DNA from: an uncultured Candidatus Saccharibacteria bacterium
GTDB lineage: Bacteria > Patescibacteriota > Minisyncoccia > Ryanbacterales > HO2-45-13
Assembly: GCA_964354975.1 (NCBI GenBank)
Contig: CAYHBS010000001.1
Location: forward strand, 56,282 to 120,281
DNA: 64,000 bases
Direction of reading: 5' to 3'
In this document: positions 1 through 29,738 of the stretch, piece after piece
How the letters are laid out: each line of letters begins with the position of its first letter
Numbering within the stretch: position 1 is the first letter of the stretch
Notes under the pieces: generated by a model
Told to the model about the DNA's origin: nothing
Databases searched by the model: none
The model's input: only the letters and a program-made list of their open reading frames with translations
Made by a program: the position numbers and the translations under genes

Positions 1-379
1 GGGCCCGTCTTGCCTTATGGAGACCGAATTTCTTGCGCTCCACTACGCGCGGATCACGCTTGAGATACCCCGCTTTCTTGAGCGCCGGACGAGTTTCTGC
101 GTCACGCTCAACAAGTGCGCGCGATATTCCAAGACGAATTGCCTCTGCCTGCGCATGCACTCCGCCACCTTTCACGACTGCAGTGATTTTTACCTTACCA
201 AGAATGCCCGCGGAATTGAGCGCATCGGTGATGATATTGCGCGTTTCATCGGTAGGAAAATACTTTTCGTGCGACTTTTTGTTCACCGTAATTTCGCCCT
301 TCGTATCAAACAAGCGCACACGTGCGGTTGCGGCCTTGCGGCGACCAATTGTTTCGATATATGTTGCTTCAGTTGCCAT
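1..379 (-). CDS. rpsI: 30S ribosomal protein S9 (3' end runs off window start)
   Basis: Not in ORF track (no in-window stop). Reverse complement from ATG at 377-379 reads MATEATYIETIGRRKAATARVRLFDTKGEITVN... and ends ...FGLHKARRA at the window edge, a typical S9 C-terminus. The start overlaps the rplM stop by 11 nt. Confidence 0.8.
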   Translation of the reverse strand, partial: MATEATYIETIGRRKAATARVRLFDTKGEITVNKKSHEKYFPTDETRNIITDALNSAGILGKVKITAVVKGGGVHAQAEAIRLGISRALVERDAETRPALKKAGYLKRDPRVVERKKFGLHKARRA

Positions 380-13247: not shown

Positions 13248-13721
13248 TTAGAGTAATGGCGCACCGGGCGTGACCGCTTCAATAGGTGCCACAAGAACGG
13301 GTTTTTCACCCTCTTTTGCCGCAAGTATCATGCCGTTGCTCTCTATGCCTTTCAGCGTACGCGCTGCCAAATTGGTCGTAAAGATGACGGTTTTGCCAAT
13401 CAAAAAATCCTTTTCATACCACGGCTTAATCCCCGAAACAATCGTGCGTGTTTCTGATCCGAAATTCACGGTGAGCTTGTAGAGCTTGTCCGATCCCTCA
13501 ATGTCTTCTGCGTTTTCGATTATGCCTGCTTGAATGTGCACGCGCTGGAGTTCTGCCAGCGAGATACGATCTTTCCCCGAAAACATACTGTCAAACACCG
13601 CCGAACAATCTGCGCAGATATGTTTTTTGGTCGCAACACCATCCTTTGGTACACCAAAATAAAGTGCTCCTGGGGCGTTGAGCTCTTTCTTACAAAAATT
13701 ATAAGTGATTTGAAGGCTCAT
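13248..13721 (-). CDS. Stand-alone tRNA-binding domain protein (Trbp111/CsaA/MetRS C-terminal-like OB fold)
   Basis: The C-terminal 110 aa (ISLAELQRVHIQAGII..DKLYKLTVNFG..IVSGIKPWY..LIGKTVIFTTNL..RTLKGIESNGMILAA) match the tRNA-binding arm. The ORF-track N-terminus (to 13940) overlaps tRNA-Trp and was trimmed to Met at 13721; an alternative start at 13586 gives a 112-aa protein. Confidence 0.65.
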   Translation of the reverse strand: MSLQITYNFCKKELNAPGALYFGVPKDGVATKKHICADCSAVFDSMFSGKDRISLAELQRVHIQAGIIENAEDIEGSDKLYKLTVNFGSETRTIVSGIKPWYEKDFLIGKTVIFTTNLAARTLKGIESNGMILAAKEGEKPVLVAPIEAVTPGAPLL

Positions 13722-13804
13722 GCGGGGAATAAGGGAATCGCAAGCACTATGAGGGCTTATAATTTTCGCGCTACAAACATATGCGATACACACGGCGATT
13801 CCGG

Positions 13805-13876
13805 CGGGAGTGCCAGGATTCGAACCTGGATAGCTGGTTTTGGAGACCAGAGTCTTAGCCGTTGGACGACACTCCC
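13805..13876 (-). tRNA. tRNA-Trp (anticodon CCA)
   Basis: Reverse complement GGGAGTGTCGTCCAACGGCTAAGACTCTGGTCTCCAAAACCAGCTATCCAGGTTCGAATCCTGGCACTCCCG: 7-bp acceptor stem, anticodon loop CTCCAAA, T-loop GGTTCGAATCC. Confidence 0.85.
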
Positions 13877-13941
13877 CTCTACACTCAAAGACAGCTTTTA
13901 GCTTATAGGTTTTAGTGCGGCACGCCAAGCCGCGTCTCACA

Positions 13942-14362: not shown

Positions 14363-14845
14363 TTGCAAGAAGAGTACATAAAACCTGAAAAACGTTTCTA
14401 CAATTGTGACCCTTGTGAGGATTGGTCTTCACTCGTCTTCGTGAGAGTTGTGGAACACGGTAGTTTACTTGGCTACGTATTTATTTACGAACCGCACCGT
14501 GGAGATCCGCGGCTCTACAAACTACCGGGAGGATCTAAGGAGGCGAATGAATCTCCGGTAGAGACCGCTCAACGGGAGCTCAAGGGAGAGACGGGTATTT
14601 CTCTTCCCTTGTCAATGTTCGAGTTCGTCGATAAGGAGTGGCGAGAAAAACCCTCGGAACACTGGCGCATCTACTTTCAGGTGGATATCACGGTCACTGA
14701 CCGCGACTGGATGCGAGATGACGCATCCGGAAACGAAGGAGAAGTTCCCGAATTCTTTACACCGCGGAGGTGGAGGGATCTTATCGCAAACGGAGGTTTT
14801 CTCGAGCCACATTTGCGCGTATTGAGCGCAAATGAACTGCTATAA
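14363..14845 (+). CDS. NUDIX hydrolase
   Basis: 160 aa; TTG start with SD AAGGAGA 7 nt upstream; Nudix box GGSKEANESPVETAQRELKGETGI. Confidence 0.8.
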   Translation: MQEEYIKPEKRFYNCDPCEDWSSLVFVRVVEHGSLLGYVFIYEPHRGDPRLYKLPGGSKEANESPVETAQRELKGETGISLPLSMFEFVDKEWREKPSEHWRIYFQVDITVTDRDWMRDDASGNEGEVPEFFTPRRWRDLIANGGFLEPHLRVLSANELL

Positions 14846-14889
14846 CAAAGCGCCCGTAACCACATTCGTGGTCGGGCGCTTTATATTTC

Positions 14890-15164
14890 TGGAGCCGTTG
14901 GCCGGAATTGAACCGGCGACCTACTCCTTCATTTACACCCCAATTTCGTAAAACATATATGGGGATTAGACTGTATCTTTGGCATATCCTTTCGGACGTA
15001 GCCACCCTTGTCAGTCGTTCGGGCCCTCGACTTCGCTCGGGCCACGGTCTTAACTCGATTTGAGTCTTTGACCGTAATTCGGGATTCATCTCAGAATTTC
15101 TTCTGAGATGGGCAGGGGCGTGTGGCCCCACCATGGAGTTGCTCTACCATCTGAGCTACAACGG
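14890..15164 (-). tRNA. tRNA-Thr (anticodon GGU inferred) interrupted by a 199-nt group I-like intron in the anticodon loop; CCA encoded
   Basis: 5' exon 15164..15129 GCCGTTGTAGCTCAGATGGTAGAGCAACTCCATGGT; 3' exon 14929..14890 AAGGAGTAGGTCGCCGGTTCAATTCCGGCCAACGGCTCCA; perfect acceptor, D, anticodon and T stems once 199 nt are removed. Confidence 0.75.
14930..15128 (-). ncRNA. Group I-like self-splicing intron (199 nt) inside the tRNA-Thr anticodon loop
   Basis: 5' exon ends in U (U-1), intron ends in G (omega-G); possible P1 between exon TGGT and intron GCCA; candidate P7 strands GACTG / CAGTC (ACGACTGACAAGG ... ACAGTCTAATCC); no ORF inside. Confidence 0.6.
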
Positions 15165-15217
15165 CACATGGGAACGAGTAACTCTGTATCCGCCAACCAG
15201 CGGAGCGCTACATGAGT

Positions 15218-15805
15218 TTATGGTAGCTCTGCGATGAACGCACACAGCTTATCACGAAGTTTTCGATTATTAAAGTGCACAGTGAGTACTCCATATTTCG
15301 CTTTATGTTTATAGTTGCCCACTCCTCGCGCCGGCGTGATAATCACTTTTTGAAACGCTGCCCGCGGAGCTGATATCTCACGCCTCCAATATGCGAGCGC
15401 AACCGATGGATTGGTGTCTGAAAATATTTGCAGGCCATATCTTAACTTCGCTTTATGTATACGAAATCGCTGTTCAAGAAATTTAAGAAAGTATCTAATG
15501 AGTTTTGGGTCGCTATTTCCAAGTCGCACTGAAGAAAGATTACGCTTTGTTCCTTCGCCCCAATATAAACCTATGCCTAAACCTTCCAAAAATGCTTCTT
15601 CTCGAATTTTAGGTGCAGCATATGAAAACGGATCACCTCCTGGGTTATGTTTAATATATACCGCATCCCGAATAGCACGTTTAGGAATTTCGTGCTTTTT
15701 TAGCCAATAATTAATGGTGCTTGTCCCTTTTTTCGTACGCTGGGCAATTTCCTTTGCCGACAACTGCTCACGTACATACATTTGCAACAGCGTTAATTTA
15801 TCCAT
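15218..15805 (-). CDS. HTH + LAGLIDADG-like (I-SceI-type GIGLxxGxG motif) homing-endonuclease-like protein, paralog of 29858-30487
   Basis: 195 aa; N-terminal HTH (LSAKEIAQRTKKGTSTINYWLKKHEI); EGLGIGLYWGEGTKRN resembles I-SceI EAGIGLILGDAYIRSR (from memory); stop codon 54 nt upstream of the intron-containing tRNA-Thr. Confidence 0.6.
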   Translation of the reverse strand: MDKLTLLQMYVREQLSAKEIAQRTKKGTSTINYWLKKHEIPKRAIRDAVYIKHNPGGDPFSYAAPKIREEAFLEGLGIGLYWGEGTKRNLSSVRLGNSDPKLIRYFLKFLEQRFRIHKAKLRYGLQIFSDTNPSVALAYWRREISAPRAAFQKVIITPARGVGNYKHKAKYGVLTVHFNNRKLRDKLCAFIAELP

Positions 15806-16061
15806 ACATCTAAATATATAAAATTACAAACTACACATTATTTAATTGATATACATTAATTTACCTGTAGTATAATAGTAACATATTAGGATATCGGTAC
15901 GCCACGCGTTCATGTGTGTGAGGAGTCTTGGAGTCATCGGGAATGATGAGATGAGTTAGAGGCACATATGTAATATAATATTTACGAGTGCACTGGTTCC
16001 CTGTACAGTATCAAGCACATACGTTAGTGGCCCCCTACACGGGACACTGATGATAAATAAT

Positions 16062-29663: not shown

Positions 29664-29738
29664 TGGAGCCACCTCTCGGATTTGAACCGAGGACCCACGC
29701 TTTACAAAAGCGTTGCTCTACCACTGAGCTAAGGTGGC
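29664..29738 (-). tRNA. tRNA-Thr (anticodon UGU), CCA encoded
   Basis: GCCACCTTAGCTCAGTGGTAGAGCAACGCTTTTGTAAAGCGTGGGTCCTCGGTTCAAATCCGAGAGGTGGCTCCA. Confidence 0.85.

Follow-up and report, generated by a model that had tools for sequence, protein, structure and literature searches.

What interrupts the anticodon loop of a tRNA-Thr gene in the window analysed here, a 64,000-nt stretch of a contig from Hainich groundwater (0.1-um fraction), and is this gene one from which a functional tRNA could still be made? Run in intron mode, ARAGORN reported a single gene, tRNA-Thr(ggt), at 14890..15165 on the minus strand, with a mature product of 76 nt, an intron length of 200, an insertion position of 36-37 and the junction atggt-Intron-aagga. 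The first-pass annotation, made from the sequence alone, had recovered a complete cloverleaf once an insert was taken out of the anticodon loop, and ARAGORN agrees with it on this, on the 36/37 insertion point, on the exon ends (AUGGU and AA), and on the loop (AUGGUAA) and anticodon (GGU) of the spliced tRNA, which also has a 7-bp acceptor stem, D and T arms, a TTCAATT T loop and an encoded CCA. Two of its figures are corrected here: the insert measures 200 nt (15129..14930) rather than 199, the earlier count having left out one base at the 5' end, and G1 of the tRNA lies at 15165 rather than 15164. The split gene is laid out as follows.

14890..15165, minus strand: whole split tRNA-Thr(GGU) gene, 276 nt, CCA encoded (ARAGORN -i and sequence)
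15130..15165, minus strand: 5' exon, tRNA positions 1-36, ending ...ACUCC AUGGU (sequence, ARAGORN)
15130, minus strand: U36, the U-1 of the 5' splice site ([A/U]UGGU before the intron in every homologue)
14930..15129, minus strand: probable group I intron, 200 nt, ORF-less (ARAGORN, structure counts, ORF check)
14930, minus strand: terminal G (omega-G), predicted to set the 3' splice site (G in 117/117 complete tRNA-Thr homologues)
14890..14929, minus strand: 3' exon, tRNA positions 37-76, starting AAGGAGU (ARAGORN)

Both exons are intact. The 3' exon opens with AAGGAGU and forms the anticodon stem together with ACUCC in the 5' exon; across 80 homologues this stem is fully (100%) paired, and 5/5 of its pairs show compensatory changes. 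Just one ORF spans the insert (14781..15134, 117 aa); it continues through the 3' exon and a downstream hairpin and has no Pfam match, and the intron is therefore ORF-less, as had been proposed. When folded, the 200-nt insert is more stable than its shuffles (z = -4.2, 0/200).

On its downstream side the gene faces a convergent NUDIX gene, with one further feature between the two.

14847..14882, no strand assigned: long inverted repeat in the NUDIX-tRNA interval, with U-rich tracts after it on each strand (sequence), probably a bidirectional terminator

A promoter and terminator scan of 14700-15900 returned no convincing sigma-70 promoter before the tRNA and no terminator call; tRNA-Thr may share a transcript with the 195-aa gene upstream of it, or have a promoter of a kind outside the scan. 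This is the single tRNA-Thr(GGU) gene seen in the window, and a tRNA-Thr(UGU) lies elsewhere in it, as does a tRNA-Tyr with a long variable arm (Rfam). Homologues of neighbouring proteins are named Paceibacterota, Parcubacteria, Adlerbacteria and Sungbacteria and, judged by such sequence matches, the host is an ultra-small member of the Patescibacteria of Parcubacteria/Paceibacteria type.

Searching GTDB species genomes with an intron-core pattern, we obtained matches in at least 120 genomes, of which 120 were fetched. In 116 of these 120 loci the intron was again present, in the tRNA and at the position found in the window; nearly all are from Patescibacteria (CPR MAGs), and the junctions (...[A/U]UGGU-intron...G-AA...) are shared. 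The U before the 5' splice site and the G at the intron end, to which the first-pass annotation had drawn attention, are thus present in the window copy and kept across homologues, the terminal G being counted in 118 parsed regions, less one chance match (L101), which leaves 117 complete tRNA-Thr homologues. Three pattern matches (L068, L101 and L109) fell in coding sequence and were rejected as chance. Reached independently via the neighbouring protein gene, 6/7 related lineages carried the split gene; one relative with the same locus (L008) is intronless. The shortest-form variant that we note, L046, is a natural 158-nt intron without P9. A tRNA-Thr intron was also seen in Niastella populi, a cultured member of the Bacteroidota, beside an integrase. 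This copy, from strain CCTCC AB 208238, lies on NZ_LWBP01000002.1 (L062:5227-5424).

A complete P1-P9 model can be drawn for the intron, P3-P7 and P4-P6 included, so that the failure to fold a group I core, which had been named as evidence against a group I intron, did not occur. The elements of the model, 5' to 3', are these.

15115..15129, minus strand: P1 extension hairpin GGGGC CACAC GCCCC, stacked above the splice site (MFE and compensatory changes)
15111..15113, minus strand: internal guide sequence GCC, modelled to pair with exon G34 G35 U36 (15132..15130) as P1 (80-homologue counts)
15087..15110, minus strand: P2, a 10-bp hairpin with an L2 GAAA tetraloop at 15100..15097 (double changes at 9/10 pairs)
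15081..15083, minus strand: P3 5' strand CCC, pairing with GGG 15007..15005 in a pseudoknot with P7 (100% paired)
15044..15075, minus strand: P4 (ACGGUC/GACCGU), A-rich J4/5 (AAA), P5 hairpin and J5/4 (AA) (80-homologue counts)
15022..15043, minus strand: P6 hairpin GGCCC...GGGCC (double changes at 4/5 pairs)
15012..15021, minus strand: J6/7 (CGAAC) and P7 5' strand GACUG, 15016..15012 (invariant in all homologues)
15005..15007, minus strand: P3 3' strand GGG (80-homologue counts)
14980..15004, minus strand: P8 hairpin with a GAAA loop; its asymmetric internal loop, GCUACG/AUAUGC, resembles the 11-nt receptor (double changes at 4/4 pairs)
14969..14979, minus strand: J8/7 (AAGAUA) and P7 3' strand CAGUC (sequence; resembles the RF00028 consensus AAGAUAUAGUC)
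14965..14966, minus strand: J7/9 dinucleotide AU, forming P9.0 with AU 14932..14931 just 5' of the terminal G (covariation)
14938..14964, minus strand: P9 hairpin CCCCA...UGGGG (double changes at 5/5 pairs)

Pairs were counted in 80 diverse homologues aligned with MAFFT, without fitting the alignment to the structure. The model left 93.1% of cells paired, against 75.9% when shuffled, and gave a covariation score of 0.473 against 0.158, with 0/500 shuffles scoring as high and slid controls at 0.07-0.12. Double changes occurred at 39 pairs, and compensatory changes in P2, P3, P5, P6, P8, P9 and P9.0, consistent with the canonical helix order P1-P9 and the P3/P7 pseudoknot. P1 and P4 are nearly invariant and P7 fully so, and these helices therefore give no covariation evidence; the strands of P4 and P7 are complementary but unvarying, P4 differing only by U·G/C-G. 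For P1 covariation is impossible because its exon strand is the anticodon, and its three pairs were G-C in 80/80, G-C in 80/80 and, for the pair next to the splice site, a U36·G wobble in 79/80. The invariance of P7 is largely fixed by the search pattern, although J6/7 and P7 are also kept in three synteny-derived homologues outside the full pattern, which differ from it in J8/7 only; a P7-independent core pattern is, for example, CCCGAATWACGGT...AGACCGT. The complementary GACUG (15016..15012) and CAGUC (14973..14969) segments picked out in the first pass are present as described, and the reading of them as P7 is supported.

Among the remaining helices, P3 changes from C-G to U-A in four of the 80 aligned sequences and reads CUC/GAG in L259; a fourth P3 pair (U56/U136) was considered and is unsupported in the window copy. 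P5 shows double changes in four pairs, and the compensatory changes of the P1 extension fall in a region poorly aligned by MAFFT. L2 is a GNRA loop in 111/112 unique introns, and a GAAA L2 co-occurs with a receptor-like P8 (Fisher p = 2e-8), which makes P8 the probable receptor for L2. P9.0 covaries (pair one GC 44/AU 31 and pair two CG 40/UA 30 among the 80 homologues) and is Watson-Crick at both pairs in 96/112 introns (GC/GC 38, AU/AU 26, GU/AC 19, AC/GU 13). The spacing is tight, with 0 nt from P3' to P8 and 4 nt from P7 to P3'. P10 does not qualify as a conserved feature: the 3' exon can form at most 2-3 bp with the bases preceding the guide G, and these show no covariation with exon changes. 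Separately, 73/112 introns, against 38 when permuted, show complementarity between the L1 loop and the final three bases of the intron, the terminal G among them. The count is drawn from two tail classes only and confounded by relatedness, and the pairing is absent from the window copy; where present, it could be an alternative to P9.0 and so serve as a switch in folding or in the order of the steps.

Annotation tools largely pass over this family. Default ARAGORN and the Rfam tRNA model missed the split tRNA-Thr gene in the window, and Rfam matches around it were limited to a T-arm fragment assigned to tmRNA and noise. The covariance-model search proposed by the first-pass annotation was run with RF00028 (Rfam Intron_gpI, gathering score 50 bits): there was no match at the gathering threshold in the whole window and none even at E<=10 in 14700-15400 (701 nt), and across 17 homologous loci none at the gathering threshold, Rfam returning tRNAs only. 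As a positive control, RF00028 scored 59-122 bits on classical tRNA-Leu introns. A score below threshold, which had been counted in advance against a group I intron, thus did occur, yet it does not refute that reading because a blind spot of RF00028 for tRNA-Thr introns is documented (Nakagawa et al., PMC13011429). ARAGORN, for its part, assigns many of the family to Arg(gcg), His(gtg), Pro or Leu, though all have UGGU-...G-AA junctions.

In the opposite direction, a covariance model of the Thr-family core found 0 introns in 80 classical tRNA-Leu(UAA) intron loci, its matches there being chance (E>=0.15), with the best (L193) off the intron-pattern site; no profile link to IC3 is therefore shown. 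A scan of viral contigs returned no classical IC3 core. Given no significant profile match, homology to canonical group I introns rests on architecture and on short motifs: J3/4-P4, J4/5, J6/7-P7 and J8/7-P7' all resemble the RF00028 consensus, and the J8/7-P7 strand AAGAUACAGUCUAAUC is nearly identical to its counterpart gAAGAUAUAGUCuaauc.

These results argue strongly for a group I ribozyme intron, compact and ORF-less, that would be removed from tRNA-Thr(GGU) by splicing. From the sequence, the intact exons, the covarying structure, the family-wide U-1 and omega-G and the host range, all observed directly, we infer catalysis, independence from protein and the roles of individual nucleotides as follows. 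The pre-tRNA transcript would carry the intron between U36 and A37, and the exon end G34-G35-U36 would pair with the guide GCC directly 5' of P2 to form P1, in which the wobble U36·G would be the reactive pair. The core would fold through the P3/P7 pseudoknot, P4-P6 with its A-rich J4/5, and P8, with the GAAA of L2 docked on the receptor-like P8. Free guanosine held in P7, presumably by the pair G15016-C14969, would attack after U36; P9.0 (AU/AU) would next bring the terminal G (14930) into the same site, and the 3'-OH of U36 would attack after G14930, joining exons that the anticodon stem should already have kept together and restoring the loop AUGGUAA. Until then the anticodon loop would be disrupted, so that neither ThrRS recognition of the anticodon nor A37 modification should be expected before splicing.

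One variant of this picture keeps the group I descent and denies the intron efficient self-splicing, making it dependent in vivo on a host protein such as a maturase or chaperone-like cofactor. The core is indeed minimal, with a 3-bp P3, a 3-bp P1, no P5abc and no clear P10, the family has diverged enough to escape RF00028, and the splicing assays of PMC13011429 covered Asn and Asp introns only. We nevertheless consider such dependence improbable: the intron has no ORF, Patescibacterial proteomes are strongly reduced, and the GNRA L2, receptor-like P8 and P9.0 are kept, as in the protein-independent Azoarcus ribozyme.

It might further be argued that the insert is inactivating, a dead intron or the remnant of a small mobile element, and that tRNA-Thr(GGU) is a pseudogene, given that standard tRNA finders and Rfam leave the gene uncalled and that the window holds a tRNA-Thr(UGU) elsewhere. 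Inspection of the locus found neither terminal inverted repeats nor a target duplication, which speaks against a MITE. Moreover, the exons and their covarying anticodon stem are kept over 80 species, the helices of the intron covary as well, U-1 and the terminal G do not vary within the family, and the element is held at one site in >110 species genomes, a pattern unlike that of a decaying insert; the pseudogene reading is therefore effectively refuted, and we give it very little weight. Least probable of all is a bulge-helix-bulge intron of archaeal or eukaryal type, spliced by proteins, or a group II intron. The anticodon-loop location would fit, but the site is 36/37 and not the canonical 37/38, no bulge-helix-bulge can be drawn at the junctions, which lie in P1 and after P9.0, and the host is bacterial by its long-armed tRNA-Tyr and Patescibacterial neighbour genes; a group II intron would be far larger than 200 nt and would not have a P1-P9 fold, and Rfam gave no group II match.

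The locus bears on how these genomes are read. The split tRNA is probably the sole G34-anticodon reader of ACC and ACU in such tiny genomes, and a gene that default finders and Rfam miss or mislabel (as Arg, His, Pro or Leu) distorts estimates of both the tRNA complement and genome completeness in Patescibacteria. That a ribozyme is kept in an essential tRNA gene of a genome-reduced lineage, over hundreds of species, suggests that the intron is very old and difficult to lose, or that it brings some benefit. The family offers >110 natural variants of a group I core of ~160-260 nt for the study of minimal ribozymes, and the cultured host of the Niastella populi copy would make in vivo tests possible.

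Outside the Thr family, a known intron of similar layout is that of the Azoarcus sp. BH72 pre-tRNA-Ile(CAU), reportedly of subgroup IC3 and ~205 nt long. Both interrupt the anticodon loop at 36/37 after a U, measure ~200 nt, have a 3-bp P1 with the guide abutting P2, and have P9.0, and neither has an ORF or P5abc. The Thr intron shows the compact IC3-like architecture, with a GNRA L2 on P2, a P8 receptor, P9.0 and no P2.1, P5abc or P7.1/7.2, and the docking of the Azoarcus GAAA L2 on a P8 receptor (PMC4333387) matches the L2/P8 correlation of the Thr introns. At the profile level, in contrast, there is no likeness to Azoarcus or IC3, RF00028 missing the Thr introns and the Thr-core model missing those of tRNA-Leu, and the Thr P3 has just 3 bp. 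The cyanobacterial and plastid tRNA-Leu(UAA) intron (IC3, 34/35) belongs to the same class and also sits in an anticodon loop, although in a different tRNA and at a different site; short core motifs (AAU-P4-AAA and AAGAUAnAGUC) are common to both, whereas RF00028 gives 59-122 bits there and nothing for the Thr intron. Dependence on exon pairing in the anticodon stem would be a further likeness (Zaug et al. 1993, as relayed by a citing paper). These comparisons leave a distinct ultra-compact group I lineage, neither typical IA nor IC3 and escaping both RF00028 and profiles of classical introns, as a tentative and rather doubtful assignment for the tRNA-Thr(GGU) introns. Observations that point towards such a lineage are its restriction, throughout most Patescibacteria, to a single tRNA and a single site in it, the 158-nt L046, the L1-loop/tail complementarity and the Niastella populi copy.

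The hallmark of subgroup IA is a pair of extra helices, P7.1/P7.2, between P3' and P8, reportedly seen also in the Twort structure. The Thr intron has no room for them, as its P3' (15007..15005) directly abuts P8 (15004..14980). In PMC13011429, CM-based classification places Thr introns with IA and not IC, and the intron tree groups them, on a long branch, with Patescibacterial Asn and Asp introns, the sole Patescibacterial tRNA introns shown there to self-splice in vitro. The latter share the phylum and differ in site and tRNAs; they are RF00028-detectable and some carry HNH endonuclease genes, whereas the Thr intron is RF00028-invisible.

The first-pass annotation rightly placed tRNA-Thr(GGU) outside the four classical hosts of bacterial tRNA introns, though such introns had already been reported for Patescibacteria (PMC13011429); its view that site 36/37 is unusual does not hold, this being the classical site of tRNA-Arg(CCU) and tRNA-Ile(CAU) introns (PMC13011429; Williams 2020, which labels the sites 'Arg.5Ug, Ile2.5Ug'). 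Table 1 of Nakagawa et al. (mSystems 2026, PMC13011429) lists 'divergent group I introns' at tRNA-Thr(GGU) 36/37 in three Patescibacterial genomes (GCA_001029635.1, GCA_016700375.1 and GCA_030583745.1), detected by tFind (Williams 2020, bioRxiv 10.1101/2020.01.27.920355). These and the window copy agree in tRNA, anticodon, site and phylum, are ORF-less, ~200 nt and RF00028-invisible, and share the ARAGORN Arg(GCG) 34/35 artefact, which we reproduced, including in a complete Wolfebacteria genome (L059). We found no essential difference: the window intron is another, ordinary member of a kind already described (reported 2020, 2025 and 2026), real and not new. What the present analysis adds is a covariation-supported P1-P9.0 model, of which we found none in the accessible text of PMC13011429, and a survey in which the Thr-intron family, listed before in 3 complete genomes, grows to 116 GTDB species genomes.

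On the minus strand, the order GCCGUUGUAGCUCAGAUGGUAGAGCAACUCCAUGGU, then 200 nt, then AAGGAGUAGGUCGCCGGUUCAAUUCCGGCCAACGGCUCCA (5' to 3') constitutes a tRNA-Thr gene that is interrupted in its anticodon loop. With introns allowed, ARAGORN called one gene, tRNA-Thr(ggt), across window 14890..15165 and described its insert as "Intron Length: 200; Insertion Position (36-37)"; once spliced, the tRNA measures 76 nt, carries an encoded CCA and the anticodon loop AUGGUAA, and has an acceptor stem of 7 bp and normal D and T arms. This confirmed the split tRNA-Thr(GGU) with an anticodon-loop insert proposed in the first-pass annotation and corrected two of its figures: G1 of the tRNA lies at 15165, one base beyond the 5' coordinate given there, and the intron (15129..14930) measures 200 nt instead of 199. 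Neither default ARAGORN nor the Rfam tRNA model called a tRNA at the split gene. The intron RNA folds 4.2 sd more stably than shuffles, and it is ORF-less, since the sole ORF across it (14781..15134) also covers the 3' exon and the hairpin downstream of it, and matched no Pfam family. The window holds no second tRNA-Thr(GGU), only a Thr(UGU) at 29664-29738; it is very probable that the split gene is needed and must be spliced.

The same split gene occurs at the same place in the closest relative (L005, neighbour protein 80% identical), where the intron is 226 nt long, with a core identical to that of the window and with P2, P5, P6, P8 and P9 rewritten; in a more distant relative (L008), the tRNA-Thr(GGU) at the syntenic place is uninterrupted. 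Searching GTDB species genomes with a P7-J7/3-P3'...J8/7-P7' pattern (GACTGACAAGG N12-42 AGATACAGTC), we found at least 120 loci with this core, and ARAGORN -i detected a split tRNA in 117/126 regions, labelled Thr, Arg(gcg), His(gtg), Pro(ggg) or Leu(gag). Every junction reads ...[A/U]UGGU, then an intron ending in G, then AA and the anticodon-stem complement, indicating that the non-Thr labels are boundary shifts. Among the matches listed, 116/120 loci carry the same intron in tRNA-Thr(GGU) at site 36/37, the ones left out being three coding-sequence loci that matched by chance (L068, L101, L109) and a non-tRNA element (L060). The unique introns among the matches listed (n = 112) span 158-266 nt, with a median of 193, and the hosts among these matches are nearly all CPR MAGs, including Parcubacteria-type groups, Saccharibacteria, Peregrinibacteria, Komeilibacteria, Moranbacteria, Uhrbacteria and others. 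Synteny look-ups, which are independent of the pattern, found the intron in L253, L254, L256, L259 and L262, and it is present in 7/8 sampled lineages around the window organism.

We counted a secondary-structure model on A1, a MAFFT alignment of 80 diverse precursors that was not fitted to any structure.

Elements of the precursor (window positions, minus strand)
Anticodon stem: exon-exon pairing
15132-15130 with 15113-15111: P1
15129..15115: P1 extension
15110..15087: P2, with L2 = GAAA
15083-15081 with 15007-15005: P3
15075..15044: P4/P5
15043..15022: P6
15016-15012 with 14973-14969: P7
15004..14980: P8
14966-14965 with 14932-14931: P9.0
14964..14938: P9
14930: terminal G

Across A1 (n = 80), 93.1% of cells were paired, compared with 75.9 +/- 0.4% after shuffling, and 39 pairs changed on both sides. 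The covariation score of 0.473 (0.158 shuffled) was reached by 0/500 shuffles, and dropped to 0.07-0.12 when partner strands were slid. Double changes occurred in 5/5 pairs of the anticodon stem, 9/10 of P2, 4/5 each of P5 and P6, 4/4 of P8, 2/2 of P9.0 and 5/5 of P9; P3 changes from C-G to U-A, with an additional compensatory change (CUC/GAG) in the syntenic locus L259, and both P9.0 pairs are Watson-Crick in 96/112 unique introns, via four dinucleotide combinations. P1 (GGU/GCC, U·G in 79/80) cannot covary because the anticodon is its exon strand, and P4 and P7, being invariant, are neutral on the model. P7 is largely fixed by the search pattern, and is unchanged in three synteny-derived copies that lie outside the full pattern, departing from it in J8/7 only.

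The group I reading of the insert is supported by this architecture and by short core motifs. The check proposed in the first-pass annotation, a search with the Rfam Intron_gpI model (RF00028), found nothing in the window copy with the threshold relaxed to E<=10, and nothing in 17 homologous loci; as a positive control, RF00028 scored 59-122 bits on classical tRNA-Leu(UAA) introns from metagenomes. R1, a covariance model of the Thr-intron family core, scored 106.7 bits on the window and found no intron among 80 tRNA-Leu intron loci. The Thr and tRNA-Leu introns are mutually invisible at the profile level, and class membership consequently rests on the architecture and the following motifs.

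Core motifs of the RF00028 consensus and of the window intron
J3/4-P4: consensus gAAUUGCGGgAAA; window GAAUUACGGUCAAA
J5/4-P4': consensus uAAuCCGCA; window UAAGACCGU
J6/7-P7: consensus aAGACUAAA; window CGACUGACAA
J8/7-P7': consensus gAAGAUAUAGUCuaauc; window AAGAUACAGUCUAAUC

Subgroup IA typically has P7.1/P7.2 helices; the window intron lacks them, as zero nt separate P3' from P8, and its layout resembles that of compact IC3 tRNA introns. In the CM-based classification of Nakagawa et al. (mSystems 2026; PMC13011429), the Thr introns of Patescibacteria nevertheless fall with IA, where they sit on a long branch.

We propose that the intron follows standard two-step group I splicing. Guanosine would attack the bond 3' of U36, a base of the P1 wobble pair; P9.0 would then bring the terminal G to the P7 site, allowing exon ligation. 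A conserved P10 helix was looked for and none was found; P10 appears dispensable, as the anticodon stem would pre-align both exons.

L2 is a GNRA loop in 111/112 unique introns. Where it is GAAA, P8 contains an asymmetric loop resembling the 11-nt receptor (GCUAAG...UAUGC; GCUACG...AUAUGC in the window), and introns whose L2 is GUAA, GCAA or the like have a plain helix as P8. The strict receptor motif accompanies 20/47 GAAA loops vs 1/65 others (Fisher p = 2e-8). These counts support a putative L2-P8 tertiary contact, and the correlation agrees with the way L2 docks on P8 in the Azoarcus ribozyme (PMC4333387).

In many members of the family, the P1-extension loop includes a stretch complementary to the final three bases of the intron, terminal G included. 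When A1 columns 11-27 were compared with 284-287 (window 15129..15115 and 14932..14930), loop CGC went with tail GCG in 37/45 cases and loop CGU with tail ACG in 20/21, and the overall count was 73/112 vs 38 permuted, in counts that ignore the kinship of the sequences. The same two tail bases serve the J7/9 strand in P9.0, such that an intron could switch between the two pairings. No such complement is present in the window copy (loop CACAC, tail AUG).

Directly upstream of tRNA-Thr(GGU), on the same strand in all syntenic loci examined (L005, L008, L253, L254, L256, L259, L262), lies a gene for a conserved 195-aa protein without a Pfam family (window 15218-15805, minus). As 52 nt alone separate the two genes in the window, co-transcription is possible. 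Every named homologue of this protein, among ~1200, is from Patescibacteria (Paceibacterota, Parcubacteria, Adlerbacteria, Sungbacteria, Doudnabacteria), and the protein also occurs on the contig ERZ1292623 Hain_H51_01um (Hainich groundwater, 0.1-um fraction). The tRNA-Tyr of the window has a long variable arm of the bacterial type; the host belongs to the Patescibacteria (CPR). Between the convergent NUDIX gene (14363-14845, plus) and the tRNA-Thr gene, a long inverted repeat at 14847-14882 (AAAGCGCCCG...CGGGCGCUUU, inner ACCAC/GUGGU), read from the sequence and followed by U-rich tracts on both strands, is likely a bidirectional terminator by prediction; a simple terminator scan gave no call there.

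Elsewhere in the window, the longest ORF for a tRNA_bind-domain protein (13248-13940, minus, 230 aa) spans tRNA-Trp (13803-13876, minus), an over-extension given that gene calls on sister contigs yield 157 aa. In one relative, the locus L259 carries at 1-107 (minus) a gene whose faint similarity to LAGLIDADG_3 may mark a homing endonuclease of another intron; the 198-aa homologue lies ~1.4 kb downstream of this gene.

One member of the family, a 158-nt intron (L046:5915-6089, plus; contig CAZCNP010000001.1, 386 kb, of a MAG labelled Gammaproteobacteria), is without the P9 hairpin, keeps P9.0 and ends ...CAGUCUAGCCAAAAGCG before AA; it would rank with the smallest group I introns in nature, its length being well under the 184 nt that the excerpted PMC13011429 gives as the minimum. 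The same intron also interrupts tRNA-Thr(GGU) of Niastella populi CCTCC AB 208238 (L062:5227-5424, minus; NZ_LWBP01000002.1), a cultured Bacteroidota isolate that could serve as a culturable system for splicing tests. The genes directly flanking this copy (L062:430-5331) encode a tyrosine recombinase, a serine recombinase and a coupling protein of the TraD type. They point to an integrative element that sits at the tRNA gene or carries it, through which the intron may have left Patescibacteria. Outside any tRNA, a group I-like core in a Lachnospiraceae MAG (L060:2724-2903, minus; CANSUS010000023.1), downstream of a 421-aa ORF, has ACGACUGACAAGG...GAGAUACAGUCUG in common with the Thr family; scoring 20.3 bits with R1 (E = 0.0055) and only 18 bits with RF00028 (E = 0.063), it may be another group I element that evades RF00028.

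About half of the tRNA-Thr(GGU) genes in loci L013-L132 were mislabelled by ARAGORN -i, as Arg(gcg), His(gtg), Pro(ggg), Leu(gag) and others, because the last intron bases (CG, UG or AG before AA) can replace anticodon bases. Automated CPR tRNA censuses will therefore carry spurious isoacceptors and overlook Thr(GGU).

The first-pass annotation had called tRNA-Thr(GGU) a non-classical host and the apparent insertion point, 36/37, unusual. The excerpted text of PMC13011429 (preprint July 2025) already lists three complete Patescibacteria genomes whose tRNA-Thr(GGU) carries an intron at 36/37, and gives 36/37 as a classical site, that of tRNA-Arg. There the three introns were "not detected" by RF00028 and were detected by tFind, ARAGORN miscalled 2/3 as Arg(GCG) 34/35, and Patescibacterial Thr introns are termed "highly divergent", the term "divergent group I introns" being credited to Castelle et al. 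2018. Williams 2020 (bioRxiv 10.1101/2020.01.27.920355), the source of tFind and its bacterial tRNA-intron model, raised the number of known intron/tRNA settings from 4 to 21. We reproduced the ARAGORN boundary artefact, including in the complete Wolfebacteria genome L059 (CP011209.1), which may be one of the three. Measured against these excerpts, the family size, strict site specificity, covariation model, L2-P8 correlation, 158-nt P9-less variant and Niastella populi copy may go beyond published accounts. In practice, the family is of interest to annotators and to those who need natural variants of a minimal ribozyme. The window intron is a further member of this already described family, each of its properties agreeing with the published Patescibacterial tRNA-Thr(GGU) 36/37 introns.
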